This document shows positions 829 through 31,531 of a stretch of 64,000 bases of DNA, piece after piece (position 1 is the first letter of the stretch; every line of letters begins with the position of its first letter). The DNA lies in the NCBI GenBank assembly GCA_964621615.1, contig CAZUMW010000001.1, positions 28,464-92,463 on the forward strand. The letters are read 5' to 3'. Source of the DNA: an uncultured Thermodesulfobacteriota bacterium (GTDB taxonomy: Bacteria; Desulfobacterota; WTBG01; CAIYCZ01; CAIRTM01). A program made the position numbers and the translations under genes. The notes beneath the pieces were generated by a model. That model was not told the DNA's origin and did not search any database. It saw nothing but the letters and a program-made list of their open reading frames with translations.

Positions 829-1560
829 TCAGCAGAATTGTATACTGGATTTCGTTGCCCGGTAAGACACCGCTATGCCGTTTGTGAGCATGGTATATTC
901 GATGGGGTCAAAGCCGGTTTTTTGCATCATATCACAGAGCGCATCCGGCAGCGGAAACGACCGGATTGAATCCGGCAGATACGCATATGCATCCCGGGAG
1001 CCGGCAAGAACAGAGCCGGTAAGCGGTATTACCGTGCGGGAGTACAGATTATACAGATACCTGAATACGGGATTTACCGGGCGCGAGAACTCAAGACACA
1101 GAAGCGTGCCGCCCGGCTTAAGCACGCGGTGTATTTCGCGAAGCCCCCGGCACATATCTGCAAGGTTTCTGAGCCCGAACCCGATCAGTACCGCATCAAA
1201 GGATTCGCTTTTGAGCGCAAGCTGCTGCGCATCACCGCACAGGTATGTCAGCGCAGCCCCGTACGGGTTTCGGTCTTTCTTTCCCAGTCCGGCACGAAGC
1301 ATGGCAAAGGAAAAATCATACACGGTCACCAGCCCCGATTTACCTGCAGCCGGGGCCGCCTGCAGGGCAAGATCGGCGGTTCCGCCGCACAGGTCAAGAA
1401 CCCGGTCGCCGGCTTTGATGCCGGCGTGCCTCACCGCATGGCGCTTCCAGCTGAAATGCAGCCCCATGCTCAGCAGCGTATTTATCAGATCGTATTTACC
1501 GGCAATATTTTCAAAATAGCGCTGTACGGTAGTGTGTTTTGACTTGATCATACGCTGCAT
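829..1560 (-). CDS. ubiE: demethylmenaquinone/ubiquinone C-methyltransferase (UbiE/MenG class I SAM methyltransferase)
   Basis: N-terminus [28 protein letters not shown] matches the UbiE/MenG signature. SAM motif [13 protein letters not shown]. Start chosen at an internal ATG (1560; alternative 1551) rather than the ORF maximum. Confidence 0.8.
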
Positions 1561-1923
1561 CTGCGAGTTGTTGTCCGGCAGGAAGTCTTTCCTTGAACAG
1601 GCCGGATTTTGGATCATCGTCCATCCAATGTATTGTCAAACCCAAAAATTGCTTAATTCTTTATCCTTTATTTGTACCAGAAAAACGGCACAGTGTCATG
1701 ATATTATACCGTAAACACCGGTATGGCATTTGTACAATCCGGACAACGTGGCGCCGTGCCATTTTTCGGATATTAACACCAATAAATAGTTCAAACCCTA
1801 AATTAAATAACAAAAATGTATTAAATCGAAAGCTTTTTCTTGCGCAAAAATTATTTTGACAGTAATATGTATACTGTTTGTACATATAAATAGTTCGTTT
1901 ACCGCATTTTCCACTATACATAA

Positions 1924-2030
1924 AAGGCCCGGCAGACATGGCGGCCAATCACTTTCTGCCGGGCGGGGACCCGTATTCATACACGCTGAGGCATACAATC
2001 CGCGGTGGTGTATGAATACGGCTTTTTTTG
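1924..2030 (+). repeat. copy 1 of ~105-nt intergenic repeat family (conserved 5' module GCCCGGCAGACRTGGCGGCCAAT..CTTTCTGC.GGGCGGGGA, 3' perfect hairpin 1971..2022 + T-run)
   Basis: Near-identical 5' module to elements at 13685, 16930 and 31131 (inverted). The 13-bp stem CCGTATTCATACA/TGTATGAATACGG followed by TTTTTTT is an intrinsic-terminator shape. Confidence 0.65.
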
Positions 2031-2095: not shown

Positions 2096-5000
2096 ATGTT
2101 TGTGGCAATTGTGTCAAGAAAAAGAGGCAAACGGATTCTTAAAACCCTGTCCGTGCTTGTCTGCTTGAGCTGTTTTATGCAGTTCAGCGGGCTGGTTAAT
2201 CTTGCCGCAGCCGCAAAAATCGACCGCAACACCCTTAATCTGAAAAAACAACTTCCCGAACCGCCAACGCTGAAACCGCCGAAACGCTCCCCGCTGGGCG
2301 AAAAAATAATGCGGTGTACTGTGATGCTGATGCCTGCGGCGGTAAAAGAATACGTGTACAAGATCGAGTCCATCGAACAGCAGCTCGACCTGCTGGAGCA
2401 GAAGCTTGAAAGCGGTGAAGACATCAATATCGATTACCGCATTGTGCTTGCCAAACTCGCCGGTTTGAAATCGCTAAGAAAAGAAGTGCAGCGTAATTTC
2501 CGTATCAGAAGCCGGCGCCTTAAAGAGCGTCTTGCAAAAAAAGAGATGCCGGTTGTGCGGAATGCTCTTGATGCGCTTCAAAAACAGCGCCGGGAATTCC
2601 GTGAAGCAGCAGCGCCGGTTTTCGAAACACTTGAAGCATTCGGGATCGCCGATGCGGTTGACCGGGTAAAGATAAACCGGCTGCGACGGCTTGTAAAGCG
2701 TCTGAAGGTTTTTAAACGGCGGCTTCCCCGCAGCCACGACAATCCCCTTCCCTGGCGAAGCGTTGAGCGAAATCAGGTCAAGCCCGAAACTGAAAGTTCT
2801 GTTACTCCCGCCTATATGCGATCTTCTAAAAACAGGTATGCAGCGCGGATTACAAGAAAACCGGCTGGTTCAAAAAGCCTTTCTGCTGCGGCGACCGGCG
2901 CGCCGATGCCCGATGACCTTTCAGAAACACCGGATGTTGTCATAACCCGGCAGATGCGAGATATTGTTGAGCGGCTCGGACACTCCCCGGCCCGAATCTA
3001 TGAGTGGGTTAAAAACAATATCCAATCCGAATTCTACCACGGCTCTTTGCGCGGCTCCGCGGGCACCCTTGCCAAACGCGCCGGTAACGATACCGATACC
3101 TGCTCGCTGCTGATAGCGCTTCTTCGGGCAGCCGGTGTGCCGTGCCGCTACGTGCAGGGCACGGTGGAGATACCGATGCAGCGCGCAAAAGCACTTACCG
3201 GTATCGAGCATGAGCCCCATGTGGGCCGGTATTTTGCCAACGCAGGCATTCCCGTCTGGAACACCGGCACCGGCAGGATACGCTTTGAGCACACCTGGGT
3301 TGAAGCCTGGGTTGACTATATGCCCTACGGCGGTGCAAAAGCCGGGACCGGTGACACCTGGGTGCCGCTTTCCCCCTGGTACAAAGACTATGAAAACACC
3401 CCCGGCACCGACCTTGCCGGCCTGACAGGATTTGACCGTGAAATGTTTATCAACGATTATATGCAGACCGTGCGTACCGATGACCCGGCTGATGCATACA
3501 AAATGTATTTTGACAATTGGTTCAGAGAAAACGGGCCGGGCCGGAACTGGCAGGAAGGGCTGGGCAGCCGCAGCCTGAAGCCCGAGCACTTCAGAAAGCT
3601 GCCGGCGACGGTCAATTTCGAGGTCATTTCCTTTCTGGGTGAACATGCAGCCCTGCCGCAGGATCAGCGCCACACGGTGACTATTGAAGTGCCGGAAGCG
3701 GGCATTGCATACACTATGAATATCATGGATTGTATCGGCAAAAAAATTTCTTTTGCCTATCTTCCTGCAGACAACGAAACCCGGGATCTGATTAATGAAA
3801 GGGGCGGTATTGACCATATACACCCCTTAAGTGTCAATCTGCTGCCCACGCTTCTTGTTGACGGGAAGCGGACGGCAGCGGGTAAAACGGTTAACGCAGG
3901 TTTTGAGCACGCGATGCGCGTTACGTTTTATGTGCCCGGTTTCGGAAGCGATGCGGTTATCTATGAAATGGTTTCGGGCGTCTATTATGTTCTCGGGATC
4001 GATCCGCAGCATGTAACAAACAAACTGCTTTCCGACAGGCTTTCTGGCAGGTGTGCTCAGGCTGAAGAACCCGTTTCTGCTTATGAGAATATGGATGAAA
4101 CGCCTGGTGATGCATTATATGTTTCCGTCATGAAGTATTTTCGCGACCGGAATACGGCCGATTACGACATTGCCGCCCTGTCAAAGGTCCGGGTTCTGAA
4201 GGAAACAACCTGTGCATTAATCGGCCGGGACCCACAGGTGATTGTGGACCGGTTCGGCCTGCCGGTCTCACTTGATAGGGGGCTCCTGTTTATTGATTCT
4301 CAGCGCGATTTTGTAACCCCGGTTTCGGTTGCCGGTGACAGCACGGCTGAAAAAGATTTTTTGTATATACGCGGGTATAACGCTTCATATAATGAGCATG
4401 ACATGTTTGAAGATTATGTGGGTATTGAGGCGGTTTCAACGGTTAAGCTGCTTCAGATTGCACGGCAGCACAATATGCCGGTGTATACTATCGATGCAGC
4501 TAACAGCGACAGTATCATCCCGCTTCTGGGACATGATGAAGCGGTGAAGCAGGTGATCCGGAATGCCGTACACAGAGGCCGCATTGTTACGGTACACAAA
4601 GATCCGGTGACGGTTAAGCAGTGGCGGGGAGTCGGGTATATAGAACGTGACCCGGTAACCCATGCCGCCGGGTATTACGGCATCGGCAGGAAAGGGTTTG
4701 CTTCAGCGGTTTTAACCGATATACAAAGCGAGGTGATCTGGCAGACAGGCAAAGTCGGAACGACCTGCGGCAACCCGGTCAGCATGGCAAGCGGCAATAA
4801 ACTGCAAAAGGAAACCGACCTTGTGCTGCCTGCTGCGGGAAAGGATGTTGATATAACGAGATACTACAACTCACGTGGAGACTGGGTCGGGCTGTTCGGG
4901 CACGGCTGGACCTTCACCTGTGATGAGCAGTTGCATGAGCGCTCTGCTGACGGCCAGGTTGTGTACCGGACAGCAGACGGCAGGCTGTATACCTATACCC

Positions 5001-8000
5001 CCGATGCAGACGGCACCTATACGGCTGAGCCGGGAAATTATGCGGTGCTGACAAAAACTGACGAAGGGTTTGTTATCCGCAAAAAGGGCGGCACACGGCA
5101 TCTGTTTAACCCGGCCGGGAAACTGATGCAGATCGTCGACCGGAACGGCAACTCACTGAGTTTCAGCTACAGCGGTGATGCCCTGACCGGCATTACCGAT
5201 GCTGCCGGGCGCAGGATAGACGTTGAGTGCCGGGATGGTAAAATAACACGGATCACTACTCCTGATGACGATAACACGTGGACCTACACCTATAACGGTG
5301 ATGATCTTGTCAAAGCCGTCAATAATGCAGGACAGACTGTATCCTATACATACCGGGACCATAACATGACCTCCCGAACCGGGCCCGGGGGCAAAACGGT
5401 TGTATATGAATATTACAGCAGCGGGAAAGTGCACTGCGAGCTTTTGCCCAACGGTGCCGAAATGGTGTTCAGCTACAACAGCCCGCTCAGGATAGCAACC
5501 ATGCGCGGCGGATGCTGCTCGGTCTCGCATCATTATTACAACCGGTACGGGCTGAATACGGGGCATATGGACGCTCTGGGCTATGAAGAGCTTGTTGAGT
5601 ATGATGACCAATTAAATGTGGTAAAAGTGATCGACAAAAAAGGCGGTGTGGTGAAAAACACCTATGATGAAAACGGCAACCTGCTGACAAAAACAGATCA
5701 GCTGAATCATACGACCGCCTACACCCATGAGCCGGTATATAACCAGGTCCTGACCGTGACCGACGGGGAAGGAAATACCACCACAAACACCTATGATGAC
5801 CGGGGGAATCTGCTTGCCACGGTCGATCCGGAAGGGGTGCGCATTGAACATGCATATTATGAAAACGGTCTGATTAAGACGACCGGCAGAAACGGTATTA
5901 TAAAAGCAGGCTTTACCTATTATGCGGATGGCACCCTTGCAACCGTAACGGATGGGGATAATAATACCGCGCGCTTTACCTATAACGCGCTGGGCAGGCT
6001 CACCGGAAAAACCGATGCAAACGGCAACACAACGGCATACGAGCTTGATAAGGCAGGCAATATTATCACGACGACCGATGCGGAAGGAAACCGGACCGTT
6101 TTTACCTACAACGAACAGAACCTTCGCACCAGCATGACCGATGGGCGCGGAAACACCACCACTTATGAATACAATGCGTATGGCAAACTCATAACAGTGA
6201 CCGATCCCATGGGTTTTGAGAAGAGCTATACCTATACGCCCATGTATGAGCTTGCATCCGAAACGGATAAAAACGGAAACACTACTTTCTATGTATATGA
6301 TGAGCTGCGCCGGGTTGTTGAAAAGCAGTATGCGGACGGCTCCGTTGAAACCTTCACCTACGATCCTGAAGGCAGGCTGATCAGCGCCGCGAACAGTCAG
6401 GGTACCACGGTGCAGGAATATGATGCTGCCGGGCGGCTGGTGAAAACGATCGATACCTTTGGCCAGGAAATTTCCTATACCTATTATGCCGACGGCAGCC
6501 GGAAGTCCATGACAGATCCGCAGGGCGGCGTGACACAATATGACTATTATGCAAACGGACAGATCAAATCGATTACCGGTCCCTCGGGAAAGACAACCGC
6601 CTATGCGTATACGGACGGGCTGCTTGAAAAGATCAGTAATCCAAACGGCACAGAAACCGTTTACGGCTATGATACTGCAGACCGGGTACACAGCCTTATC
6701 ACCCGCAAACAAAACGGCGAGGTGATTTCAGACATCCGGTATGAGTATGACGGTGTCGGCAATCGCCTGAGCATGACCGATACCGAAGGGGTTCACACCT
6801 ATGAATACGACATGCTCGATCAGGTCGTACGGGTCGACTATCCGGACGGTACGTTTACTGAGTATACCTATGATCCGGCATATAACCGGGCGACAATGAC
6901 AACCCCTGATGCAGCCGTTCTGTATGTGTATGACGATAACAACCGCCTGATAGAGGCCGGTGATGTAACCTTCAGCTATGATGCAAACGGCAACCAGATC
7001 AGCAGGCTGGAGGACGGGGAGGTGACCGCCTACCGGTTTGATGCAAAGAATCAGCTCGCAGGAATCTCCTTCAGCAGCGGAACTGAAAATACATTTGCCT
7101 ATAATGCCTTCGGGCAGAGGATCACCCGGAAGGACGGCTCCGCTATCATGCATTATCTGTATGACGGCAGGCAGGTGCTCATGCAGACAAACGGACAGGG
7201 CGTAATAAGCAGCGCATTTGTGAACGGATCCGGGTTAATCGGACCGCTTTATAAAAAGAACGCAAGGGATGAATACACCTGGTATGTCAGGGATGCCCTG
7301 GGCACTGCAACCCATCTGACCGATGAGGCAGGTGACATTGCTGCCTCATACCGGTATGATATATTCGGCGCGGTGCGAAGCTCAACGGTTATTGATGACC
7401 GGGGAATCAGGAATCAATATACGGGAAAAGAGCTTGACGATGAATCGGGCCTCATGTATTTCGGAGCGAGATATTATAACCCGGAGATCGGCCGGTTTGT
7501 TTCTGCTGATACCTACACCTGGGGGCCGGATGATGAGAGGGGGATGAACAGTCGCGGACAGGATCACATTTTGACATATGTTGGTGCTACTCAAACATCG
7601 CAATTAAACCTTTATGTTTATACAGCCAACAATCCTGTCAAACAGATTGATCCAGACGGACATCTAGCGGGCCTTGCTGCAATAGTTGCGTTGATTATGC
7701 TCAGTTTAGTAGCTTCTTCATTGATGGTAATTGCTAGAACTTTTACGGGTACTATAGGAAATAATGCAGCGGAAGTTTTAAGCGGAATGGTTGCTGATTT
7801 CATGACAGCGTACGGTTTGCTTGGTGCGCTTCCTGGGATAGCAACTGCTACTTTGACTTCTTTGTTGGTAAATTTTGTTACTACCCTATGGACAGAGCTT
7901 TATCTTAACCGCACAATTAGAGCAGTAAACAAATTTTACAGTGCTATTGACAGTTTGTTAGCATATTATGAATCTCCGCGTGTACAATGTCCAATTTTTC

Positions 8001-8005
8001 ATTAG
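2096..8005 (+). CDS. Rhs/YD-repeat polymorphic toxin (1969 aa) with N-terminal signal-like segment and a transglutaminase-like cysteine-protease domain; C-terminal hydrophobic toxin tip
   Basis: AGGA-like RBS before ATG. The transglutaminase-like Cys-His core is CSLLIALLRAAGVPCRYVQG ... EHTWVEAWVD (nt ~3080-3330). Dozens of YD repeats (YTYDxxGNL, nt ~4900-7200). Rhs core motif RYYNPEIGRFVSADTY (nt 7471-7518), then DPDGHLAGL (nt ~7648). The last ~110 aa are hydrophobic and Gly/Ala-rich. GC drops sharply from ~7560 to the stop. Confidence 0.85.
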   Translation: MFVAIVSRKRGKRILKTLSVLVCLSCFMQFSGLVNLAAAAKIDRNTLNLKKQLPEPPTLKPPKRSPLGEKIMRCTVMLMPAAVKEYVYKIESIEQQLDLLEQKLESGEDINIDYRIVLAKLAGLKSLRKEVQRNFRIRSRRLKERLAKKEMPVVRNALDALQKQRREFREAAAPVFETLEAFGIADAVDRVKINRLRRLVKRLKVFKRRLPRSHDNPLPWRSVERNQVKPETESSVTPAYMRSSKNRYAARITRKPAGSKSLSAAATGAPMPDDLSETPDVVITRQMRDIVERLGHSPARIYEWVKNNIQSEFYHGSLRGSAGTLAKRAGNDTDTCSLLIALLRAAGVPCRYVQGTVEIPMQRAKALTGIEHEPHVGRYFANAGIPVWNTGTGRIRFEHTWVEAWVDYMPYGGAKAGTGDTWVPLSPWYKDYENTPGTDLAGLTGFDREMFINDYMQTVRTDDPADAYKMYFDNWFRENGPGRNWQEGLGSRSLKPEHFRKLPATVNFEVISFLGEHAALPQDQRHTVTIEVPEAGIAYTMNIMDCIGKKISFAYLPADNETRDLINERGGIDHIHPLSVNLLPTLLVDGKRTAAGKTVNAGFEHAMRVTFYVPGFGSDAVIYEMVSGVYYVLGIDPQHVTNKLLSDRLSGRCAQAEEPVSAYENMDETPGDALYVSVMKYFRDRNTADYDIAALSKVRVLKETTCALIGRDPQVIVDRFGLPVSLDRGLLFIDSQRDFVTPVSVAGDSTAEKDFLYIRGYNASYNEHDMFEDYVGIEAVSTVKLLQIARQHNMPVYTIDAANSDSIIPLLGHDEAVKQVIRNAVHRGRIVTVHKDPVTVKQWRGVGYIERDPVTHAAGYYGIGRKGFASAVLTDIQSEVIWQTGKVGTTCGNPVSMASGNKLQKETDLVLPAAGKDVDITRYYNSRGDWVGLFGHGWTFTCDEQLHERSADGQVVYRTADGRLYTYTPDADGTYTAEPGNYAVLTKTDEGFVIRKKGGTRHLFNPAGKLMQIVDRNGNSLSFSYSGDALTGITDAAGRRIDVECRDGKITRITTPDDDNTWTYTYNGDDLVKAVNNAGQTVSYTYRDHNMTSRTGPGGKTVVYEYYSSGKVHCELLPNGAEMVFSYNSPLRIATMRGGCCSVSHHYYNRYGLNTGHMDALGYEELVEYDDQLNVVKVIDKKGGVVKNTYDENGNLLTKTDQLNHTTAYTHEPVYNQVLTVTDGEGNTTTNTYDDRGNLLATVDPEGVRIEHAYYENGLIKTTGRNGIIKAGFTYYADGTLATVTDGDNNTARFTYNALGRLTGKTDANGNTTAYELDKAGNIITTTDAEGNRTVFTYNEQNLRTSMTDGRGNTTTYEYNAYGKLITVTDPMGFEKSYTYTPMYELASETDKNGNTTFYVYDELRRVVEKQYADGSVETFTYDPEGRLISAANSQGTTVQEYDAAGRLVKTIDTFGQEISYTYYADGSRKSMTDPQGGVTQYDYYANGQIKSITGPSGKTTAYAYTDGLLEKISNPNGTETVYGYDTADRVHSLITRKQNGEVISDIRYEYDGVGNRLSMTDTEGVHTYEYDMLDQVVRVDYPDGTFTEYTYDPAYNRATMTTPDAAVLYVYDDNNRLIEAGDVTFSYDANGNQISRLEDGEVTAYRFDAKNQLAGISFSSGTENTFAYNAFGQRITRKDGSAIMHYLYDGRQVLMQTNGQGVISSAFVNGSGLIGPLYKKNARDEYTWYVRDALGTATHLTDEAGDIAASYRYDIFGAVRSSTVIDDRGIRNQYTGKELDDESGLMYFGARYYNPEIGRFVSADTYTWGPDDERGMNSRGQDHILTYVGATQTSQLNLYVYTANNPVKQIDPDGHLAGLAAIVALIMLSLVASSLMVIARTFTGTIGNNAAEVLSGMVADFMTAYGLLGALPGIATATLTSLLVNFVTTLWTELYLNRTIRAVNKFYSAIDSLLAYYESPRVQCPIFH

Positions 8006-8203: not shown

Positions 8204-8578
8204 ATGCCGTTACTGGACATATTGTTAGCCATTTTTGGTTTTGGTTTAATGGTTTTATGTATGCTGTTCCCAGAAAAAGTTAAATCATTTTATTCCACTA
8301 ATAATGAGAAAGAAATAAAACCGCAATTAAAAAAAATTACAATAGGTTTATTTGTTCTTATTATCGATTTCGGAATATGGTCTATATGTTCTTTGGTAGT
8401 TGGAATAAATATTACTGATGAAGGAAAAATATTATTTAATTTTATAACAATAATTATTGTTCCTTTAATATCTTTCATCTTTATTTTCTTTGGGCTTATT
8501 GATTTGATTAAACACTTATTATCAACAAAAAAAACGAAGCAAAAGGAAGCAAGGAATAAACCAGGGGTTACATCTTAA
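8204..8578 (+). CDS. small multi-pass membrane protein, candidate Rhs immunity protein
   Basis: Immediately downstream of the Rhs toxin tip. AGGGAG RBS 8 nt before ATG 8204. 124 aa with about 4 predicted TM helices. Very AT-rich like the toxin tip. No recognisable family. Confidence 0.5.
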   Translation: MPLLDILLAIFGFGLMVLCMLFPEKVKSFYSTNNEKEIKPQLKKITIGLFVLIIDFGIWSICSLVVGINITDEGKILFNFITIIIVPLISFIFIFFGLIDLIKHLLSTKKTKQKEARNKPGVTS

Positions 8579-9660
8579 ATAATAACTATTGCATACAAAA
8601 AGAAGCGACAATAATGTCTCAAAGACACACGATTCAATCAGATTGTATTGTGGGGAGAGATCAATGACACGTGCATTGCGTGTTGAGTATGAAGGGGCGT
8701 TCTATCATATTCTTAATCGAGGCAACGGGGGAGAGAAAGTACTCAAACAAAAGCGGGACAAGGAAAGATTTCTTCAGTATGCAGGAGAAGCCGCTGAACG
8801 ATACAGCTTTGTCATTCACACCTATTGCCTGATGGATAACCATTTTCATGTGGTTGTAGAGACCCGTGAAGCAAATCTGAGTACAGCAATGCAGTGGCTC
8901 AATGTGAGCTATGCGACATGGTATAACAAAAAGCACAGCCGAAGCGGTCATGTATTTCAGGGAAGATTCAAATCATATTTGATAGATGCGGATGAATATT
9001 TGGCAGCGGTATCCCGTTACATACATCTCAATCCGGTTCGGGCGGGGATGGCAGAAAATCCTGCGGTTTATCAATGGAGCAGTTACGGGTGTTTTGTGGA
9101 ACAACGGGAAAAGCCCGGATGTCTGGAGACCCGGAAAGTGCTTTCATATTTCAGCCCAAAGACTTCTGAGGCAATAAAGGAATATAAGAGGTTTGTTGAA
9201 AATATAGAGATAAACGCGCTTGAAAATCCCAGCAAACAAGCTGTTGAGGGATTTATAATCGGGGGAGCTGGTTTTGCAGACCGGGTGCGGCAACAAATGG
9301 TTACAGCAAATCACGAACAGGAAAAAGAGATTCCCCAGCTTAAAAGGCTTAAGCCCAAACCGGCACTTGAAAGCATAATAGAAGCAGCGTCTTATGTGTT
9401 TTGCTGCAGGAGAGAAGATATTGTAAGAAGCGGAAAGAAACATAACCTGGCACGTGATATAGCGATATATATTGCACGAACGTCAACCGGTTTGTCATGC
9501 AGAGAACTCGGGGAGCATTTTGGCGGAATAACGGGTGCCGGGATTACTATGAAGTACAGGCAGATAAAAAATCTGGCGGAAAAGGAAAAAGGTATCAGGG
9601 AAAACATAGCGAATATCAGCAGCCGTATATTTAATATTTAAGATGTGACCCTTGACTATG
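8563..9660 (+). mobile_element. IS200/IS605-like (Y1 HuH transposase + DnaA_C-like HTH) element delimited by 16-bp inverted repeats GGGTTACATCTTAAAT / ATTTAAGATGTGACCC
   Basis: The left repeat at 8563-8578 overlaps the stop of the immunity ORF. The right inverted copy is at ~9639-9656 (15/16 match). Single transposase ORF inside. Low GC. Confidence 0.5.
8664..9641 (+). CDS. IS200-like Y1 (HuH) transposase / RAYT-type protein fused to DnaA C-terminal-like HTH domain
   Basis: HuH motif DNHFHVVVE and Tyr motif RYIHLNPV (Y1 transposase fold). The C-terminal ARDIAIYIARTSTGLSCRELGEHFG resembles the DnaA_C HTH. GGGGAGAGA RBS upstream of ATG 8664. Confidence 0.7.
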   Translation: MTRALRVEYEGAFYHILNRGNGGEKVLKQKRDKERFLQYAGEAAERYSFVIHTYCLMDNHFHVVVETREANLSTAMQWLNVSYATWYNKKHSRSGHVFQGRFKSYLIDADEYLAAVSRYIHLNPVRAGMAENPAVYQWSSYGCFVEQREKPGCLETRKVLSYFSPKTSEAIKEYKRFVENIEINALENPSKQAVEGFIIGGAGFADRVRQQMVTANHEQEKEIPQLKRLKPKPALESIIEAASYVFCCRREDIVRSGKKHNLARDIAIYIARTSTGLSCRELGEHFGGITGAGITMKYRQIKNLAEKEKGIRENIANISSRIFNI

Positions 9661-9801
9661 CTCAAAAAATATTTTTTGGCAAATTTCATTGTGTTTGCTG
9701 TTTTTGTTGTTACCCTGGGTGCAGCAGTTGTACTGATTATTATAGGTCTATTTGATTTGATTCGCCATTGGTTTAAGAAAAGGAAAAGGGTCACATCTTA
9801 A
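9658..9801 (+). CDS. 47-aa hydrophobic mini-ORF, orphan immunity-like fragment (C-terminus homologous to 8204..8578 product)
   Basis: Translation MLKKYFLANFIVFAVFVVTLGAAVVLIIIGLFDLIRHWFKKRKRVTS. The C-terminus (GLFDLIRHW...VTS*) parallels GLIDLIKHLL...GVTS* of the upstream protein. The nucleotide 3' end, including GGGTCACATCTTAAAT, is duplicated. No clear RBS. Below the ORF-track length cutoff. Confidence 0.35.
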   Translation: MLKKYFLANFIVFAVFVVTLGAAVVLIIIGLFDLIRHWFKKRKRVTS

Positions 9802-9886
9802 ATATTAAATATTTCACACAAAGAGAAGCACAAATGATGTCTCATAGGAACACGATTCAGGCAGATTGTATTTTGGGGAACGGTTA

Positions 9887-10131
9887 ATGACACGTGCGTT
9901 GCGGGTTGAATATGAAGGAGTGTTCTATCATATTCTTAATCGAGGCAACGGGGAGAAAAAGCACTCAAACAAAAGCGGGACAAGGAAATATTTCTTCAGT
10001 ATGCAGGAGATGCTGCTGACCGTTACAGCCTTAACATTCATACCTATTGCCTGATGGACAACCATTTTCATCTGGTCATAGAAACCCGAGCAGCAAACCT
10101 GAGTGCGGCAATGCAGTGGCTGAATGTGAGC
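9887..10131 (+). pseudogene. truncated, frameshifted duplicate of the IS200-like transposase 5' end
   Basis: nt 9788-10131 are ~85-90% identical to 8563-8945, including leader and MTRALRVEYEG..YHILNRGNG. A 1-nt deletion (GGGGAGAGAAAG to GGGGAGAAAAAG) shifts the frame. Homology ends abruptly at ~10131. Confidence 0.6.
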
Positions 10132-10162
10132 TGTTTAATTGAAGTTGAGTAGGTTATGAATT

Positions 10163-12190
10163 GTGAAAGTTGAGTTCATGAATAGAAACCAGGCAGAAAA
10201 TGCTTTGTATCGTATTTTTGGTCACAGAGAATTTTACGATGAGCAGTGGCAGACTATCGAAAGGCTCTTTCGCGGTGAGCGTTTGTTGATGATTGAGCGA
10301 ACCGGTTACGGGAAATCCCTTTGTTATCAATTCCCGGCAACGCAGTTTAAGTATACCACCGTTGTTTTTTCGCCGCTTATTGCATTAATGCGTGACCAGA
10401 TTGACTATCTGCAATCAAAAGATATTGCCGCAGAATGCATAAACAGCGAACAGACTCCTGAAGAAAACACCCGGATTATTGCCGAGGCAAAGCAGGGGAA
10501 GATAAAGATTCTCTATATTGCGCCTGAACGCCAGGAGAATCAGGAATGGATTGAAGCTGTTCAAAGCGGACAGATAAAAATATCAATGGCAGTTATTGAT
10601 GAAGCCCACTGTGTCTCTATGTGGGGACATGATTTTCGTCCCGCTTTTCGTCGGATCATAAGTCTTATAAAAATGCTTCCCCGCAATTTTCCTGTACTTG
10701 CCACAACCGCTACCGCAACAGATCGTGTTGCTCAAGACATTATAAAACAGATGGAAGGTCATGTTAGGCTGGTGCGCGGTGATCTCATGCGAAAGAATTT
10801 TCGTTTATCGGTTGTGACTTTTGATTCAGAAGATGCAAAATTTGCCTGGGTGGCTGAATTTCTACAAAAGCAATCTGCGGATGCAACGGGAATTATTTAT
10901 ACCGGCACCAGGGTCAATACGGAACTTTATTCCCGGTGGCTTGGGGCAAACGGTTTTTCCGTGGCAAGTTATAATGCCGGTCTTGATCCGGAATCACGTA
11001 AAGCCATAGAAGAAGGATTGCTCTTAAACAAATATAACTGTATTGTTTCTACAAATGCACTGGGCATGGGGATTGACAAATCAAATATTCGTTTTATCGT
11101 ACACACGCAGCTGCCGGCATCACTGATACATTATTATCAGGAAATCGGCCGGGCAGGCCGTGATGGACTGCCTGCACAAATAGCCTTATTATATAATCAG
11201 AAAGATAGAGAACTTCCTCGATCATTTATCGAAAAAAACCGACCTGACATTAAGCTGTACACAAGAGCTGTAGACGCATTACGCCGGGAGCCTCTGGGTG
11301 AATATGATTTAATGCGCAGAACAAACCTTACCCAGACCCAGATAAGAGTCATCAGAAGCGATCTCATTGATCAGGGTATAATAAATGAGGCTGCTTACGG
11401 GGGTAAAAAGAAATATGAATTGAAACACAATGCCCCGGCTTTAGATACCGAACCCTTCAAAAGACTCCGCGGTTTCAAAGAACAGGAGCTTCAAAAAATG
11501 ATCGACTATGCAGAAGCTGAAAAGGGCGGTATGAATATTTTGTGTGAGTATCTTGGTGATAATCCGGGTGCGGCAACTGACGGCTGTGAACGTTATACTT
11601 ATGCATTAAGTGAATCCTGGAGGAAAGCTATAGCTGCATTTCGAGACGATTATTTTCCGGAGTTGCCGGTCGAGACGAAAAACAGCATTCTTATTAATGG
11701 TGTTGCCGCTTCATATTATGGTGTTTCTAATGTTGGATCGGTAATACATCGTTGTAAATATGAAAATGGTGGTGATTACCCCGGGCATTTAATAAAGCAG
11801 ACGCTAAGGGCCTATAGGGCTCGACTGAGCCAAACCGCATTTGATTTAGTTCTATATGTGCCGCCGGCGGTATCCGGTGATTTGGTTAAGAATTTTTCTG
11901 TTGCTGTAGCTAAGTCATTGGGGCTGCATTTGTCACATGGTCTTGTTAAATTAAGAGAGACTAAACAGCAGAAAATTTTTCAAAACGGCGTTTTGAAACG
12001 TGATAATGTAAAAGATGCCTTTGATTATGCCGGTCCGGAAGATATTGAGGGGAAAAGTATTTTATTAATTGATGATATTTTTGACAGCGGAGCAACAATA
12101 AAAGAGATAGGACGAATGTTAAAGAAAAAAGGAACTGCAAAAGCCGCTCCGTTGGCAATTGCCAGGACGGTTGGGGGTGATTTGTCGTGA
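10163..12190 (+). CDS. RecQ-family DNA helicase fused to a C-terminal ComF/ComFC-type phosphoribosyltransferase (PRTase) domain
   Basis: Walker A TGYGKS. DEAH box VIDEAHCVSMWGHDFRPAF. RecQ motif YYQEIGRAGRDG. No RQC/HRDC. The last ~190 aa carry the ComF signature (LRETKQQKIFQNGVLKRDNVKDAF; PRPP-binding SILLIDDIFDSGATIKE...LAIAR). GTG at 10163 or ATG at 10178. Low GC. Confidence 0.8.
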   Translation: MKVEFMNRNQAENALYRIFGHREFYDEQWQTIERLFRGERLLMIERTGYGKSLCYQFPATQFKYTTVVFSPLIALMRDQIDYLQSKDIAAECINSEQTPEENTRIIAEAKQGKIKILYIAPERQENQEWIEAVQSGQIKISMAVIDEAHCVSMWGHDFRPAFRRIISLIKMLPRNFPVLATTATATDRVAQDIIKQMEGHVRLVRGDLMRKNFRLSVVTFDSEDAKFAWVAEFLQKQSADATGIIYTGTRVNTELYSRWLGANGFSVASYNAGLDPESRKAIEEGLLLNKYNCIVSTNALGMGIDKSNIRFIVHTQLPASLIHYYQEIGRAGRDGLPAQIALLYNQKDRELPRSFIEKNRPDIKLYTRAVDALRREPLGEYDLMRRTNLTQTQIRVIRSDLIDQGIINEAAYGGKKKYELKHNAPALDTEPFKRLRGFKEQELQKMIDYAEAEKGGMNILCEYLGDNPGAATDGCERYTYALSESWRKAIAAFRDDYFPELPVETKNSILINGVAASYYGVSNVGSVIHRCKYENGGDYPGHLIKQTLRAYRARLSQTAFDLVLYVPPAVSGDLVKNFSVAVAKSLGLHLSHGLVKLRETKQQKIFQNGVLKRDNVKDAFDYAGPEDIEGKSILLIDDIFDSGATIKEIGRMLKKKGTAKAAPLAIARTVGGDLS

Positions 12191-13362
12191 TTAATACGCA
12201 CGAGTACTCATATTGGATTGCATTGAGTCATTTACCGAAATGGCGTATCGAGCGTATCAATATGCTTATTGTTGAGATCCTTCATAATAAAAATATGCAG
12301 CTCGCAGAGTTTTTTGAGCTGAGTCCGCCATCCCGGGAAAAAGAGTTTCATTTGGATCATAAGGAAAGTGCAGATATACAAAAGGCCGGGGAATATTTGT
12401 CCAATTACTCTTTCCTTGCTGAACAATTGCTTGTACAAGGCTTTGATATAATTCCTATCAGCTCCCCTGACTATTCTCCAGTGCTGAAAAACAATCTTAA
12501 ACTCAAATATTCTCCGCCCCTGCTTTATGTCAAGGGGAACAGGCGGCTGCTTTACGAGCCATCAGCCGCAATAGTCGGCTGTCGAAAAGCATCTGACATT
12601 TCTTTGCACTTTACCCGTACGATTGCTGAGAAATGTGCCCATGAAGAAAAAGTAGTGGTGAGCGGATTTGCCAAAGGTATTGACCGGCAGGCGCTTGATT
12701 CGGTCCTTGCATATCATGGCAAAAGTATTATTGTTCTGCCGCAGGGGATTATGACATTTGGCAGTGGTATAAAAAAATATTATAAGCAGCTTGTTGACGG
12801 AGATGTGCTGGTTTTAAGCACTTTTTATCCGAAAGCCCCATGGAGCGTAGGCCTTGCTATGGCGCGAAATGTATATATTTACGGTTTAGCCGAAGAAATA
12901 TTTGTGGCCGAATCGGATAATAAAGGGGGCACGTGGTCCGGTGTTCTCGATGGGTTAAAAAAGGGGCGGACAATATTTGTTCGCAAGGCGGACATACAGG
13001 AAAAGAATACAAACAATATTTTGATAGAAAAGGGAGCCCGGGGAGTAGACTTGCAGGGAAATATAATTTCTTTAGAAAAAGAAGGTATGCACCAGCATAT
13101 CATTGCAGACAATGTTGCCGCCTACGGTCTGCAAGCAGAGAATAGTGATTCATTTGAAAGTAAAGTTATACAGTATTTAAATAAGACGAAAGAGCCAAGA
13201 ACCTCCAGGCAGATTAAGGAAGCCATTAACGTAGAGGAACCTGCACAAAAGATAACGCAGAAATTAAAAAAAATAACCGGTATCAATTATACCAAACATA
13301 AAAACAAAATCTTTTTTTTCACTGAACGAACAAATCCATTAAAACAGCAGGAGCTGTTCTGA
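12187..13362 (+). CDS. dprA: DprA/Smf-family DNA-processing protein (SLOG/Rossmann fold) with C-terminal winged-helix-like extension
   Basis: The GTG start overlaps the upstream TGA (GTGA), indicating translational coupling. DprA core PLLYVKGNRRLL...AIVGCRKAS...VVVSGFAKGIDRQA...IIVLPQGI...VYIYGLAEEIFVAESDNKGGTWSG. Low GC. Confidence 0.75.
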   Translation: MINTHEYSYWIALSHLPKWRIERINMLIVEILHNKNMQLAEFFELSPPSREKEFHLDHKESADIQKAGEYLSNYSFLAEQLLVQGFDIIPISSPDYSPVLKNNLKLKYSPPLLYVKGNRRLLYEPSAAIVGCRKASDISLHFTRTIAEKCAHEEKVVVSGFAKGIDRQALDSVLAYHGKSIIVLPQGIMTFGSGIKKYYKQLVDGDVLVLSTFYPKAPWSVGLAMARNVYIYGLAEEIFVAESDNKGGTWSGVLDGLKKGRTIFVRKADIQEKNTNNILIEKGARGVDLQGNIISLEKEGMHQHIIADNVAAYGLQAENSDSFESKVIQYLNKTKEPRTSRQIKEAINVEEPAQKITQKLKKITGINYTKHKNKIFFFTERTNPLKQQELF

Positions 13363-13414
13363 TAGTGATATTTGGCAGCACGCGGGCGGTGGCACATCTT
13401 AAATAAAAAAATTT

Positions 13415-13681
13415 ATGGATGCACTTATTCGTTTTGCAACGTCTGTTTTGTATGTTTTGGCCGGCTGGGGGACAAAGCAATTTTTCAGTGGGAATATAGA
13501 TAAGTATAAAATTCTATATATAGCAGTGCCGATATTATTGGCAATATATTTTTTGGCTATAGAAAAAATGTATGAGATACAAAAGCAAAACAGAAAGATA
13601 ATTGCCAAATCCAGGAATGCCGTGATTCAATTTTTGGCATTAGCAACAATATTTTATTTTTTTGGTCTAATATTTGTGTAA
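13415..13681 (+). CDS. small hypothetical membrane protein (88 aa, 3 TM-like segments)
   Basis: AT-rich ORF at the island edge. No family recognised. Weak RBS. Confidence 0.3.
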   Translation: MDALIRFATSVLYVLAGWGTKQFFSGNIDKYKILYIAVPILLAIYFLAIEKMYEIQKQNRKIIAKSRNAVIQFLALATIFYFFGLIFV

Positions 13682-13684
13682 ATA

Positions 13685-13786
13685 AGCCCGGCAGACGTGG
13701 CGGCCAATTACTTTCTGCAGGGCGGGGATCGGTATTTATTCACCTGAGGACAGCATCCTTTGTGTGCATGAATACGGCTTTTTTTA
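13685..13786 (+). repeat. copy 2 of ~105-nt intergenic repeat family with 3' hairpin + T-run
   Basis: First ~70 nt identical to copy 3 and ~90% to copy 1. Ends GCATGAATACGGCTTTTTTT. Confidence 0.65.
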
Positions 13787-15069: not shown

Positions 15070-15939
15070 ATGAATACCGTTAAAGCGTTTTTTGCCGTAA
15101 ACAGATCTCCGCTCATACAATATATGGCAAGGCGCAGGAGCAACAAAATCCTGAAGCGGCTTGCCCCGCATGTGAAGCGCCTTATGGCCCCGGATGAAGA
15201 GCCGCAGGCCCATTGCCTGCTTGTCCGGTTTGCCTATGATCTGATGTGGGTCGATATGCTGAACCCGCTTTTTGCGATGCTGGCACATATCATCAGAAGC
15301 TGTACGATTGAAAAAAAGCTGGTTCTCGCAACAGATAAAAGGCTGCTGATTTTTAAGCTGACCGTGCGAAGCCGCTATGCCCGGGAGGCATATGAGATTT
15401 TATATTCCTCAATTAAAACGGTTACTCTGTGGGCGCCGGTGCTTTTGCCCTCACAAAAGCTCAGCCTGAAACTGAAGGATAACACCGGCTATGTTCTTGA
15501 AACGGTCAAGCAGTATCCGCTCGACCGCATTTATGCTGCGGTTAGCAAGCGGATTGAAAGCGCCACGGCAGACGAGCCGCAGTATAATGCTGCGTATCAC
15601 CGGCGGTGCGCGGCCTGCGGTGCAGTTTATAATCGATCAGACGCCGCCTGTCCGCTGTGCGGGTTTAAAAACCGCAGTCCGGCAATTGCCGGGATACTGT
15701 CGTTTGTCATTCCCGGCCTGGGGCAGCTCTATCTTGGCCGTGCGGTTCTTGGAGCAGTTTTTATGGCCTATCATGTTTTAATTTTTTGCTTTGTGTACGT
15801 GTATGTTATCCAGTGGATCGGCCGGTGGCATGAAATAGCTTACCTGGTTTTAATTCAGATGGTGATACATATGATTAACAGCGCAGTAAATGCATGCATA
15901 CATACCCATGAATCAAACGTACTGGGAGGCGCACGATGA
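15070..15939 (+). CDS. hypothetical protein with zinc-ribbon (CAACGAVYNRSDAACPLCG) and C-terminal TM2-like membrane domain
   Basis: CxxC...CxxC pair. FVIPGLGQLYLGRAVLGAVFM resembles the TM2 domain motif. Confidence 0.45.
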   Translation: MNTVKAFFAVNRSPLIQYMARRRSNKILKRLAPHVKRLMAPDEEPQAHCLLVRFAYDLMWVDMLNPLFAMLAHIIRSCTIEKKLVLATDKRLLIFKLTVRSRYAREAYEILYSSIKTVTLWAPVLLPSQKLSLKLKDNTGYVLETVKQYPLDRIYAAVSKRIESATADEPQYNAAYHRRCAACGAVYNRSDAACPLCGFKNRSPAIAGILSFVIPGLGQLYLGRAVLGAVFMAYHVLIFCFVYVYVIQWIGRWHEIAYLVLIQMVIHMINSAVNACIHTHESNVLGGAR

Positions 15940-16886
15940 AATTAAAATACTCTATAATGCTTGCTCTCGTTCTTGTTGCTAACAGCTGCAGCCGGACTTC
16001 GCCGGAAGCGGTGTTTGAGTCAATGACGGCAGCAGAAAAAAAGGCCGGCGTCTGCATGGTGGAGCTTCTGTCTAACCATCAGTTTAAGCTGATTGAGCAA
16101 TGCATACGACGTGCTGTGGCGGCGTATGAAAAAGATTGTCAAAAGGAGCGACAGCTGGGGCTTTTGTGGGAAGCATTTCAAAGAAAGGATCCTTTCCTTG
16201 AGCCTCATTTTAATGCATATGTTGCCGCTTTTCCGGATTCCTATGTCGCGCATATGGCGCGGGGAGTATATTATATCGGCATAGCCTGGTTCAAACGGGG
16301 ATCGGCGCCGATAAGCCGGACCTCACAAAAGCAGCTCGAAGGGCTGAAAAAGTATCTTCGCCGTGCCGAGCAGGACCTGCTCAAAGTAAAACAGATGCAG
16401 CCCGGCCTGCCGCATGTGTATGCAGAATTGATAATTATCAAGATGCCCCGGGTAAAGAACAAAGAGCGCATAAAAGAAATAGCGCAAGAGGGGCTCAGGC
16501 ACAGCCCGGTCAGCGTTTCCATACGGCTCAGCTATTTAACGTCGCTGCTGCCGCGCTGGAACGGCTCGATTGAGGAGATGGAGGCGGTTGTCAAAAAAAC
16601 AAAAAAACATATTAAAGACAATCCGGCACTCAGTGTTGTGTGCGGGCGGGTTCTTGCTGAAAAAGGCGATACATATTTCTTTAATCGCGAATACAGCAAA
16701 GCCATTCAATTTTATAATGAGGCGCTTAAGCACGGCGAAACCGCGTTTGTCCTGTGCCAGAAATCGCGGGCCCTTCTGTTTAATGGCGAAAGGGAGGGGG
16801 CGTTAACATGTATTGAGCGGGCGATTGAGCTGCGGCCCTCCTATCAGCAGCTTCATGAGATGAAGATGGGCCTGACATCATCATAA
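15936..16886 (+). CDS. TPR/Sel1-like repeat lipoprotein
   Basis: Lipoprotein signal with lipobox LVANSC. TPR-like helical repeats near the C-terminus. The start overlaps the upstream stop (ATGA). Confidence 0.55.
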   Translation: MKLKYSIMLALVLVANSCSRTSPEAVFESMTAAEKKAGVCMVELLSNHQFKLIEQCIRRAVAAYEKDCQKERQLGLLWEAFQRKDPFLEPHFNAYVAAFPDSYVAHMARGVYYIGIAWFKRGSAPISRTSQKQLEGLKKYLRRAEQDLLKVKQMQPGLPHVYAELIIIKMPRVKNKERIKEIAQEGLRHSPVSVSIRLSYLTSLLPRWNGSIEEMEAVVKKTKKHIKDNPALSVVCGRVLAEKGDTYFFNREYSKAIQFYNEALKHGETAFVLCQKSRALLFNGEREGALTCIERAIELRPSYQQLHEMKMGLTSS

Positions 16887-16929
16887 CCGGCAGGATTTCA
16901 GAATAATGTAAAAAAATCATTGAATAATA

Positions 16930-17027
16930 AGCCCGGCAGACGTGGCGGCCAATTACTTTCTGCAGGGCGGGGATCGGTATTTATTCACCTGAGGACACAC
17001 TCCTGTGTGTGAAGGAGACGGCTTTTT
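16930..17027 (+). repeat. copy 3 of ~105-nt intergenic repeat family
   Basis: Identical 5' module to copy 2. 3' GGAGACGGCTTTTTTT. Confidence 0.6.
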
Positions 17028-17069
17028 TTGTGCCTGTAATCAAAATTTAATTTATAGGAGCAGGAAGAT

Positions 17070-29445: not shown

Positions 29446-29928
29446 TCACTCATTCCTCTTTTGTCCCACCACGTTCGTGTCTTTCAGATTATTTGTCCGG
29501 CTTAACAGTGCATCAACTGAACCGTCTGCCTCCTGGAAGCAATCAGATTTTCGCGCATTAAAAATTCTTCTAAACCATTGATACATATGGTGCATGTAAT
29601 TTTCATCCCCACAGAACATCCTTCTGCCGTTCTTATAGATACATGCATTCTTAATCTCTATTTCGCCGGATGCAATATCTTCATATGAAAAAGACATCTC
29701 TCTGGGATAAAACGTGGGGTTACTTTTGATGTAGAAAAGATCGTCCTGTATACCGTATGCTCTGGGAACATACAGATAGCAGCCAAAAACACCGTCATCT
29801 ATACAGGGAAACGCAGTTAACCAGTATTTAAATTCATAAATGACATCATCGGTGCATTCTGCACTAACAGGAGATGCAGTCAATGAGAGCAATATAAGAA
29901 TGGTGCCGGTTAAATAAAATTTTTTCAT
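29446..29928 (-). CDS. secreted hypothetical protein (Cys-containing, 160 aa)
   Basis: Signal peptide MKKFYLTGTILILLSLTASPVSA. AGGAGGGGGG RBS. Confidence 0.45.
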   Translation of the reverse strand: MKKFYLTGTILILLSLTASPVSAECTDDVIYEFKYWLTAFPCIDDGVFGCYLYVPRAYGIQDDLFYIKSNPTFYPREMSFSYEDIASGEIEIKNACIYKNGRRMFCGDENYMHHMYQWFRRIFNARKSDCFQEADGSVDALLSRTNNLKDTNVVGQKRNE

Positions 29929-29994: not shown

Positions 29995-30055
29995 CCGGAC
30001 TGGCTGTATAGAGAAGGGATACTCTATCAGGCAGTCCGGCTATCCGCTTTTGTAG
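29995..30055 (-). terminator. hairpin + U7 on minus strand in the leader of 29446..29928 (terminator/attenuator-like)
   Basis: Minus-strand reads CCGGACTGCCTGATAGAGTATCCCTTCTCTATACAGCCAGTCCGG then TTTTTTT, about 65 nt upstream of the start codon. Confidence 0.35.
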
Positions 30056-30479
30056 CGGACCCGCGGCTTTCCGCCACCCGATCACTCGGGATTCGGTTTT
30101 TTTCTGATATCAGTTCACAAATGAAATGTTAAACATATAACAAAGCATATTTTGCCACCATTTAAATTGTTATGTACTAATTATTTCTATTAGTGATATA
30201 TAACAAAAATTCAAGTGCATAATTGAGCTTTGCCGAATAAAGGCTTATAAAAAGCAGCGCCTATGTAACTGTAATAAAGGATATAATCAGCGAAAATGAA
30301 CGGTAAATACGGGGGCAGTGTCCGGAAATGCAGCGCAAAAAAGGTACGAGCTCTCGAGGGTGCACACAAATTTTTTTGATTTGACGTAACGAAACAATTG
30401 ATGACAAACGGTGTTTCATATTAATATAGGCACATAGCATTAAAGCATATATCCATTAACCCGTTCGAGGTGCCCTGTT

Positions 30480-31001: not shown

Positions 31002-31130
31002 AATCCAGCAATGTGCTCAATCCACCATTGTTTCGCCGGAAACCAATTAAACGTATTTATCAAAATCACCGCCCATAGCCGGTTCACTTTTTCTTTTGCT
31101 TTTTAGCGTATCGGTGCTATTATTTTTAAT

Positions 31131-31232
31131 AAGCCGTATTCATGTACACACGGGATTTTGTCCCCAGTGTATGAATACCGGTCCCCAGCCCGGCAGGAAG
31201 AGCTTGGCCGCCACGCCTGCCGGGCTTTTTTT
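31131..31232 (-). repeat. copy 4 (inverted orientation) of ~105-nt intergenic repeat family
   Basis: The reverse complement matches AAGCCCGGCAGGCGTGGCGGCCAAGCTCTTCCTGCCGGGCTGGGGACCGGTATTCATACAC... It lies just downstream of the minus-strand gene 31262..31531. The plus strand also shows a CCCGGCAGG..CCTGCCGGG hairpin + T7. Confidence 0.6.
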
Positions 31233-31261
31233 ATGTGCAGGCTACTTTTTTTAACAGACAG

Positions 31262-31531
31262 TTATTGCTGAATTGAGCCCCGCCGTGAAGAGATGTTTTT
31301 GCGCATGATGCGATAGCGGGTATAGCCGAATATCGCAACAGCTGCAGCCAGCGGAAGCAGCGCATAGCCGAGAAGCATGATGTGGTAATTGTGGGGGAAC
31401 ACTTTGAGGATGGTTACCCCTGATACCCCGAGCATAATAGCGGTGCGGATATATGCAAGAAATGTGCGCTCATTTGCCAGAAGGGTCCTGTCGGCCGAAA
31501 GATCATCACGCAGGTAGGTCTGATCCGTCAT
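31262..31531 (-). CDS. DUF202/YidH-family small membrane protein
   Basis: LANERTFLAYIRTAIML motif typical of DUF202. Two TM helices. Confidence 0.6.
   Translation of the reverse strand: MTDQTYLRDDLSADRTLLANERTFLAYIRTAIMLGVSGVTILKVFPHNYHIMLLGYALLPLAAAVAIFGYTRYRIMRKNISSRRGSIQQ

Follow-up and report, generated by a model that had tools for sequence, protein, structure and literature searches.

A four-copy intergenic repeat with terminator-like anatomy in an uncultured Desulfobacterota lineage

Four related copies in intergenic DNA

The 64,000-nt stretch of DNA examined here (the window), from contig CAZUMW010000001.1 of an uncultured Thermodesulfobacteriota bacterium, carries a non-coding element of about 105 nt in four copies, c1 to c4 (Table 1), all of which lie in intergenic DNA. 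Copy c1 sits in a 478-nt gap between the divergent UbiE-like (829-1617, minus strand) and Rhs (2096-8005, plus strand) genes, and 66 nt separate its end from the Rhs ATG at 2096. Copy c2 directly follows the TAA of an 88-aa open reading frame (ORF; 13415-13681) that closes a low-GC island, and its end lies about 100 nt upstream of an NHL-repeat gene (13885). Copy c3 starts 40 nt past the stop codon of a TPR gene (16886) and ends 40 nt before a gene for a 3027-aa adhesin (17070), and c4, the only inverted copy, separates the convergent DUF202 gene (31262-31531, minus strand), the last of a cstA-DUF202 pair (Pfam DUF202, CstA), from a 173-aa gene (30480-31001, plus strand) with a signal-peptide-like N-terminus, which is coding by codon score. 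These contexts derive from Pfam, NCBIfam and PADLOC annotation combined with a codon-usage score trained on the confident genes of the window. By this score two further ORFs near the copies are non-coding, one on the plus strand upstream of c1 (1593-1859) and a 108-aa one on the minus strand downstream of c4 (30761-31087). An earlier note on this DNA had placed three copies immediately 3' of a same-strand gene (13415..13681, 15936..16886 and, on the minus strand, 31262..31531) and c1 upstream of Rhs, and this description of the context is correct. Two of the gaps are thus co-directional (c2, c3), one is convergent (c4) and one divergent (c1), with a same-strand gene upstream of three of the four copies (not c1) and downstream of three of the four (not c4). 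Because c1 and c4 are the exceptions, no single cis-role, whether as 3' terminator or as 5' leader, fits all four.

The family is recovered by three different routes. The 22-nt core GCCCGGCAGRCRTGGCGGCCAA occurs at 1927, 13686 and 16931 on the plus strand and at 31225 on the minus strand, these being the only four matches in the window with at most three mismatches, as against a chance expectation of 0.00 in 100 dinucleotide-preserving shuffles. The largest direct repeat (D1) and the longest inverted repeats (I1 and I2) that an unbiased search of the window turns up belong to this family as well. A covariance model built from the four copies and run with filters off over both strands of the window scores them at 101-119 bits, with the next best match at 17 bits. 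The positions given in the earlier note agree with all three to within a few bases, and the four-copy intergenic family is real. Whole-element pairwise identity is 79-92%, ranging from 84-100% in the 5' module (hairpin 1 with the GGGGA that follows it) to 69-85% in the 3' module, and about 69% of the alignment columns are invariant across the four copies. The sequence of c1 is also present in two short Logan contigs (L033 and L034), the only other sequences of this organism that were found, and both are identical to the window. The 17-bit match, at 60175-60271 on the minus strand, was considered as a fifth copy and set aside, as inspection by eye shows no convincing homology; 13-bit matches at 41298-41341 belong to an ordinary terminator and not to the family.

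Table 1. Position, parts, predicted hairpin energies and flanking tails of the four copies (H1, hairpin 1; H2, hairpin 2)
Copy	Span	Strand	Setting	Covariance-model score (bits)	Parts	H1 (kcal/mol)	H2 (kcal/mol)	Forward tail	Opposite-strand tail after H1
c1	1920..2030	+	between divergent UbiE-like and Rhs genes	101	H1 1927-1964; GGGGA 1965-1969; H2 1970-2021; C + T7 2022-2029	-20.6	-26.9	CTTTTTTTG	CTTTTATG
c2	13679..13786	+	between 88-aa ORF and NHL-repeat gene	119	H1 13686-13723; GGGGA 13724-13728; H2 13729-13777; C + T7 13778-13785	-14.3	-15.5	CTTTTTTTA	TTATTTAC
c3	16924..17030	+	between TPR gene and 3027-aa adhesin gene	110	5' module 16931-16973; H2 region 16974-17021, 3' arm decayed; C + T7 17022-17029	-14.3	homologous H2 lost	CTTTTTTTG	TTATTATT
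c4 (inverted)	31124..31236	-	between convergent genes	108.5	A7 run; H1 31225-31188; TGGGGA 31187-31182; H2 31181-31134; tail 31133-31124	-26.3	-19.1	CTTATTAAAA	TTTTTTTATG

Anatomy, folding and descent of the copies

The copies are laid out alike, with a run rich in A (ATAAAAG in c1 and as long as A7 in c4) leading into hairpin 1, the GGGGA linker, hairpin 2 and finally a C followed by a T-run. Hairpin 1, GCCCGGCAGR ... YCTGCMGGGC, measures 38 nt in all and consists of a GC stem of 9-10 bp closing a loop of 17-18 nt, the first ten bases of which (TGGCGGCCAA) are the same in all four copies; the loop segment UGGCGGCCAA and the GGGGA linker are invariant too. Hairpin 2, CCGGTATTCATACAC ... GTGTATGAATACGG, spans 48-52 nt with about 14 bp and a small apical stem. 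The two hairpins share no sequence, and their arms pair only within their own hairpin. A conserved 5' module had been described in the earlier note as containing RCGTGG and as able to form a CCCGGCAG/CTGCCGGG stem; the module is present, with ACATGG in place of RCGTGG in c1, and the stem exists, with a G/A mismatch in c2 and c3. In c2 this single mismatch in hairpin 1 is accompanied by wobble pairs and further mismatches in hairpin 2. Read directly, the ends of the element form a short imperfect inverted repeat, CAYAAAAAAAGCC...GGCTTTTTTTRTG, of about 12-14 nt that has degenerated on the 5' side in c2 and c3 and on the 3' side in c4. [quoted passage not shown]

The copies differ in how well they fold. 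The whole-element folds of c1 (-50.5 kcal/mol, z = -4.5) and c4 (-50.9 kcal/mol, z = -5.5) stand out from those of shuffled sequences; those of c2 (z = -1.4) and c3 (z = +0.25) are not far better than shuffles. In c3 the 3' arm of hairpin 2 has mutated from ATGAATAC to AAGGAGAC, and the homologous hairpin no longer forms. The forward T-run of c4 is broken, and on the plus strand its hairpin 1 is followed by TTTTTTT, in the manner of a textbook terminator. The proposal that each copy ends in an intrinsic-terminator hairpin therefore holds for c1 and c2, which have a forward hairpin with T7, and fails for c3, with its decayed hairpin, and for c4, with its broken T-run. Taken together with the genes around them, c2 has intrinsic-terminator anatomy on the forward strand and c4 on the opposite strand, where it would serve the gene at 30480-31001; c1 shows this anatomy with no gene upstream of it, and c3 combines the T7 with a decayed hairpin. 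RNAalifold of the four copies recovers both hairpins, with 34 pairs in total. Compensatory double changes occur at two of these pairs, both setting c4 apart from the other three copies and both replacing A-U by G-C, one at the base of the hairpin 1 loop and the other in the apical stem of hairpin 2. Four further pairs with a one-sided change remain paired as G-U on the forward strand, and in a control with slid partners the share of paired cells falls from 94% to 37-48%.

The similarities among the copies point to their common descent. Copies c2 and c3, 3.2 kb apart, are 92% identical to each other and only 79-83% identical to c1 and c4, and their 5' modules are 100% identical. The derived changes that they have in common weaken the structure: the 3' arm of hairpin 1 has a C-to-A change that puts the G/A mismatch into the stem, the 5' arm of hairpin 2 has two C-to-U changes, and in the loop TCAC has become TTAC. 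Because c2 and c3 share derived stem defects, either an already imperfect copy was itself copied or one copy converted the other, and the shared defects show directly that the copies arose by DNA copying and not by convergent evolution of terminators. Alignment of the four copies thus shows that they descend from one sequence, and it supports regarding them as a copied, dispersed element rather than as independently evolved terminators.

Beyond the window, the searches returned no relatives of the family. Rfam at the gathering threshold yields only a c-di-GMP-I riboswitch across the whole window and no match to the element, and at E values up to 10 c1 and c4 gather only sub-threshold noise of at most 18.5 bits, so that the Rfam comparison proposed in the earlier note came out negative. 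The core finds 32 singletons in unrelated high-GC taxa when searched in one genome for each of 185,579 species, one match within a coding region in JGI metagenome contigs and one match in IMG/VR viral contigs, none of them genuine. In BLAST alignments not one of them reaches past the 21-25 nt pattern, and they are therefore attributed to chance. Among PLSDB plasmids blastn gives three matches only, all with E values of 0.3 or worse. A profile of the repeat's six-frame translations, meant to pick up spurious ORFs predicted over further copies, gives no match at E <=10 among 5.8 billion proteins, a result that is uninformative rather than negative. The nearest relatives by PolA are 66% identical or less, and the covariance model, run with filters off over 76 kb around polA in three species whose PolA is 63-66% identical, one of them from the sequencing run that also holds the window's organism, finds no members (best score 15.5 bits). 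As far as can be seen from these sequences, the family is specific to this uncultured Desulfobacterota lineage. This run thus contains a second, related species, with a PolA that is 65% identical, which shows the same order of genes around polA, namely a BcrAD/BadFG-type activase, asparagine synthase, carboxyltransferase, Peptidase_MA_2 and polA (contigs L041, from Logan SRR7048224, and L040, from GCA_964518865.1).

A proposed dispersed terminator-like cassette and its rivals

The explanation favoured here, with moderate confidence, takes the element for a dispersed non-coding repeat, about 105 nt in length and restricted to its lineage, which belongs to the MITE-like or stem-loop-containing families and has a two-hairpin terminator-like cassette as its body. 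When transcribed forward, hairpin 2 with its U-run would act as a Rho-independent terminator and as a protector of the 3' end of the upstream gene, as the anatomy of c1 and c2 suggests. On the opposite strand, hairpin 1 with the U-run derived from the A-run would act as a terminator, best developed in c4, and the cassette would thereby work in both directions, as between the convergent genes at c4. Where termination is useless or harmful the copies would be free to drift, as c3 may have done in losing hairpin 2 before the giant adhesin gene. Spread could have come about through a trans-acting enzyme encoded elsewhere in the genome or through recombination and gene conversion between copies. 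All of the mixed gene contexts are accounted for by a copied element able to survive only in intergenic DNA. The convergent site appears to suit c4, in which hairpin 1 leads into a strong T7 on the plus strand and hairpin 2 faces the cstA-DUF202 pair, and the loss of hairpin 2 in c3 is what would be expected under relaxed or reversed selection on termination.

A number of results weigh against this explanation. All four copies lie within 30 kb, the other 32 kb of the window being without any by the covariance model, and a history of local duplication might conceivably account for them. No flanking direct repeat marks a target-site duplication at any of the four junctions when these are read directly, although the A- and T-run ends leave duplications of 1-2 nt undecidable, and neither empty sites nor a partner transposase were identified in the window analysis. 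The proposal of a terminator-bearing mobile repeat keeps its terminator-like anatomy and its dispersed copies and lacks clear target duplications. Terminator activity itself is predicted from anatomy alone, and a simple terminator scan, which accepts loops of up to 8 nt, passed over the homologous hairpins of the element with their longer loops; the single match that it made inside a copy is a different, 5-pair stem in c3. The conservation of the 5' module exceeds what a pure terminator needs and hints at an additional, sequence-specific role. Nor is the covariation significant, 70 of 500 shuffles reaching the observed values, with four sequences that amount to effectively three lineages. The compensatory changes by which the stems were to be checked are thus present at two pairs but carry no statistical significance; the hairpins are plainly present as palindromes, and the four copies suggest selection for them at most weakly.

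A comparison with ordinary bidirectional intrinsic terminators is possible within the window itself. The organism does use canonical signals: a unique 16-pair bidirectional terminator, AAAAAAGCCCTGCAG-AAATA-CTGCAGGGCTTTTTT, lies at 41298-41334 next to a sigma-70 promoter with an 11/12 match (41283-41255, minus strand). The likeness to the element extends from the layout of A-run, GC-rich stem and T-run to the stem of hairpin 1, GCCCGGCAG/CTGCMGGGC, which is nearly that of this terminator (GCCCTGCAG/CTGCAGGGC): the two stems differ by one base, and the terminator's stem matches the 3' arm of c2 and c3 exactly. Hairpin 1 may have been derived from a plain terminator, or the likeness may be coincidental. 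Ordinary terminators, however, are single short-looped hairpins without homology between sites, whereas the element is a 105-nt two-hairpin unit with 79-92% identity among copies, one of which (c1) lies in a divergent promoter region.

Among known repeats, the element most resembles in function the broad, common and well-documented class of stem-loop-containing intergenic repeats, such as the Neisseria Correia elements (CREE), the pneumococcal RUP, BOX and SPRITE, the enterobacterial ERIC and the 92 families of stem-loop-containing sequences (SLS) that were surveyed in 40 genomes, two thirds of them intergenic (Cozzuto et al. 2008, PMC2267715). Like these MITE-type and stem-loop families, it is non-coding, measures about 100 nt, keeps strictly to intergenic DNA, exists in several diverged copies, and has stable RNA hairpins and short imperfect inverted termini. 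An effect on neighbouring genes through termination or RNA stability is likewise to be expected (PMC2267715, PMC3184786, PMC10969869, PMC2649163, PMC3049150), the roles of MITEs and of repetitive extragenic palindromes (REPs) in termination and mRNA stability having been reviewed (PMC3184786, PMC10969869). Unlike them, it shows no sequence similarity to any of these families and has two unrelated hairpins instead of one long terminal-inverted-repeat hairpin; only four copies are known, and no target-site duplication or parental insertion sequence (IS) was found.

The earlier note had also likened the element to REPs and to the bacterial interspersed mosaic elements (BIMEs) that they form. REPs are imperfect palindromes of 20-40 nt with a GTAG or CGTC tag at one end (PMC3733652) and usually occur in more than 100 copies per genome, alternating in orientation within BIMEs with short linkers between them (PMC3733652, PMC2817692, PMC3333891). 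The element is similar in consisting of GC-rich intergenic palindromes found mostly after genes, in the roles proposed for it in termination and mRNA stabilisation, and in sharing the window with a gene resembling a REP-associated tyrosine transposase (RAYT). It differs in having unrelated hairpins, no conserved tag and a hairpin 1 loop of 17-18 nt. Across the four copies, neither hairpin has a conserved GTAG or CGTC, or a complement of these, at its foot; GACG is found only in c2 and c3, at the stem-loop junction. The RAYT-like gene encodes a Y1 (IS200-type) transposase fused to a DnaA-type helix-turn-helix (8664-9641; NF047646, 73 bits, below the cutoff of 80) and is flanked by another repeat, GGGTYACATCTTAAATA, unrelated to the 105-nt element and found at 8565 (plus), 9635 (minus), 9788 (plus) and 13389 (plus). 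The idea that the element is the REP of this neighbouring gene is thereby ruled out; a cognate RAYT enzyme might conceivably be encoded elsewhere in the genome. In the strict sense, then, with two unrelated hairpins, no GTAG or CGTC tag and a RAYT-like gene flanked by a different repeat, the element is on present evidence not REP/BIME-like.

Several ~100-nt copies, each with a 5' hairpin and a terminator hairpin, are also characteristic of multicopy small-RNA (sRNA) families such as LhrC1-5 and Qrr1-5, in which the promoters are conserved and which are conserved across related species. The suggestion that the copies form an sRNA family would have an RNA of about 100 nt arise from the 3' untranslated region (3' UTR) of the upstream mRNA or by transcription of its own, with the loop (UGGCGGCCAA...) or the GGGGA linker as seed and hairpin 2 with the U-run as terminator. 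The succession of 5' hairpin, single-stranded linker and terminator is indeed that of many sRNAs, c2, c3 and c4 start 0-40 nt past a stop codon as a 3'-UTR origin would require, several of the one-sided changes preserve G-U pairs on the forward strand only, and the TGGCGGCCAA loop and the linker are invariant in all four copies within a 5' module that is more conserved than the 3' module. An invariant 10-nt block, however, is not unusual where about 69% of columns are invariant. Homology begins at the A-run, with unrelated sequences upstream, no sigma-70-like promoter precedes any of the four copies on the element's strand, c1 lacks a gene ahead of it on its own strand whose mRNA could be processed to release it, and the terminator hairpin has been lost in c3 and the U-run in c4. 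As the repeat also lacks promoter homology, an Rfam match and conservation in the three related species, the sRNA family raised in the earlier note is not supported and is regarded as unlikely. A role as a cis-regulatory 5' leader, acting as an attenuator or antitermination target before the Rhs, NHL-repeat operon and 3027-aa adhesin genes, draws on the other side of the gene context: the same-strand genes that start 40-100 nt beyond the ends of c1, c2 and c3 have good Shine-Dalgarno sequences and surface or toxin-type products, and an attenuator is likewise built from a conserved 5' module with a terminator hairpin and T-run behind it. It is decidedly unlikely, given that c4 has no downstream same-strand gene (the 108-aa ORF being non-coding and the ORF on the opposite strand a real gene), that the folds show no alternative antiterminator pairing between the modules, and that the terminator has been lost in c3, the copy before the largest gene. 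Near-identity that includes the loops suits recent copying and not an old regulatory family, and the element is absent from relatives and from Rfam. A peptide-coding role was tried as well and rejected; the small ATG/GTG frame in the element (MAANHFLPGG...) is broken by an indel in c4, and the substitutions in it are non-synonymous.

The distribution of the copies along the window could also be read as a series of recombination or boundary sites, in the order c1, Rhs and the low-GC island with PsyrTA, c2, the NHL-TPR operon, c3 and the adhesin, where, as at integron attC or island att sites, direct repeats would allow modules to be acquired, lost or shuffled. Modules of accessory type are set apart by c1, c2 and c3, which are direct repeats, and all copies fall within the accessory half of the window, with none in the half that holds core genes. 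The GC content drops near 7.6 kb, within the 3' end of Rhs, and is back up by about 13.8-14.0 kb, so that c2 lies exactly at the right edge of the low-GC island, and 5.6 kb, including the Rhs core, separate c1 from the drop on its right. The view that two copies bracket the island is thus borne out for c2 and not for c1, unless the whole of Rhs is counted in. Integron attC sites are marked by R''/R' cores (RYYYAAC ... GTTRRRY), an IntI gene close by and small promoterless cassettes arrayed in a single orientation. The would-be cassettes here are multi-gene units of 3-12 kb, c4 is inverted, no integrase or tyrosine recombinase domain is found in the ORFs scanned at 1-35 kb, and direct reading of c1 reveals no attC core (GTTRRRY or RYYYAAC). 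An integron attC array is ruled out by these four points, and the boundary-site reading is very improbable. A further, quite unlikely possibility is that the well-conserved 5' module, that is hairpin 1 with its invariant loop UGGCGGCCAA together with the GGGGA linker, is the specific recognition module of an undescribed Desulfobacterota element. Such an element could be either a non-autonomous mobile element that carries a two-way terminator and borders accessory modules (the Rhs toxin with the PsyrTA island, the NHL-TPR operon and the giant adhesin) or a 3'-UTR-borne sRNA family tied to surface and toxin genes.

Most likely, therefore, the family is a dispersed, MITE-like element specific to this lineage, with a second function as an intrinsic terminator in one or both directions; its mobility, its terminator activity and its abundance are inferred. 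For annotation, the four sites are best labelled as repeat or terminator-like elements and not as genes, riboswitches or REP sequences. Should the element prove abundant genome-wide, it would serve as a handy marker for, and might drive, the rearrangement of accessory regions in a little-known, uncultured deltaproteobacterial lineage, and it would add to the cases in which a repeat equips the genes beside its landing sites with ready-made terminators. It is an ordinary kind of bacterial repeat, and no long-standing question hinges on the family.

Other features of the region

The RAYT-like gene is bounded by inverted repeats of 27-28 nt (8562-8589 and 9627-9654). The GGGTYACATCTTAAATA motif at 9788 heads a truncated second copy of the 5' part of this gene (9788-10132, 85-88% identical to 8565-8910), and the fourth, degenerate copy of the motif, at 13389 (13389-13405), follows the PsyrA gene. 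Alone, these motifs do not fold as hairpins, unlike REPs or the ends of IS200/IS605 elements. Between the motif copies at 9788 and 13389, in the low-GC island, lie two genes (10163-13362, plus strand) that match the models of PsyrTA, an anti-phage toxin-antitoxin defence system. They encode a RecQ-like helicase fused to a ComF-type phosphoribosyltransferase (675 aa; PsyrT model, 795 bits) and, in an overlapping gene, a DprA-like protein (391 aa; PsyrA model, 259 bits).

At the left of the island, the Rhs protein (2096-8005, plus strand; 1969 aa) has an N-terminal transglutaminase-like domain and DUF6531, and GC falls from about 0.50 to 0.31-0.40 across the last 400 nt of its gene and beyond. 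The gene is followed by a 124-aa membrane ORF (8204-8578, plus strand; GC 0.26), a candidate that could be an immunity gene, the layout being the usual one for a swapped toxin tip with its immunity gene.

The riboswitch noted above is a c-di-GMP-I (cyclic di-GMP) aptamer at 30027-30107 on the minus strand (RF01051, scoring 49 bits where the gathering score is 35). The 160-aa ORF that follows about 100 nt downstream of it (29446-29928, minus strand) has a signal-peptide-like N-terminus and matches nothing in Pfam or NCBIfam. The adhesin gene downstream of c3 (17070-26153, plus strand) encodes a 3027-aa surface protein with eight CARDB stretches, PKD domains and a C-terminal ice-binding-like adhesive domain, along with a prenyltransferase/squalene-cyclase-type alpha-alpha toroid and TED-like segments.

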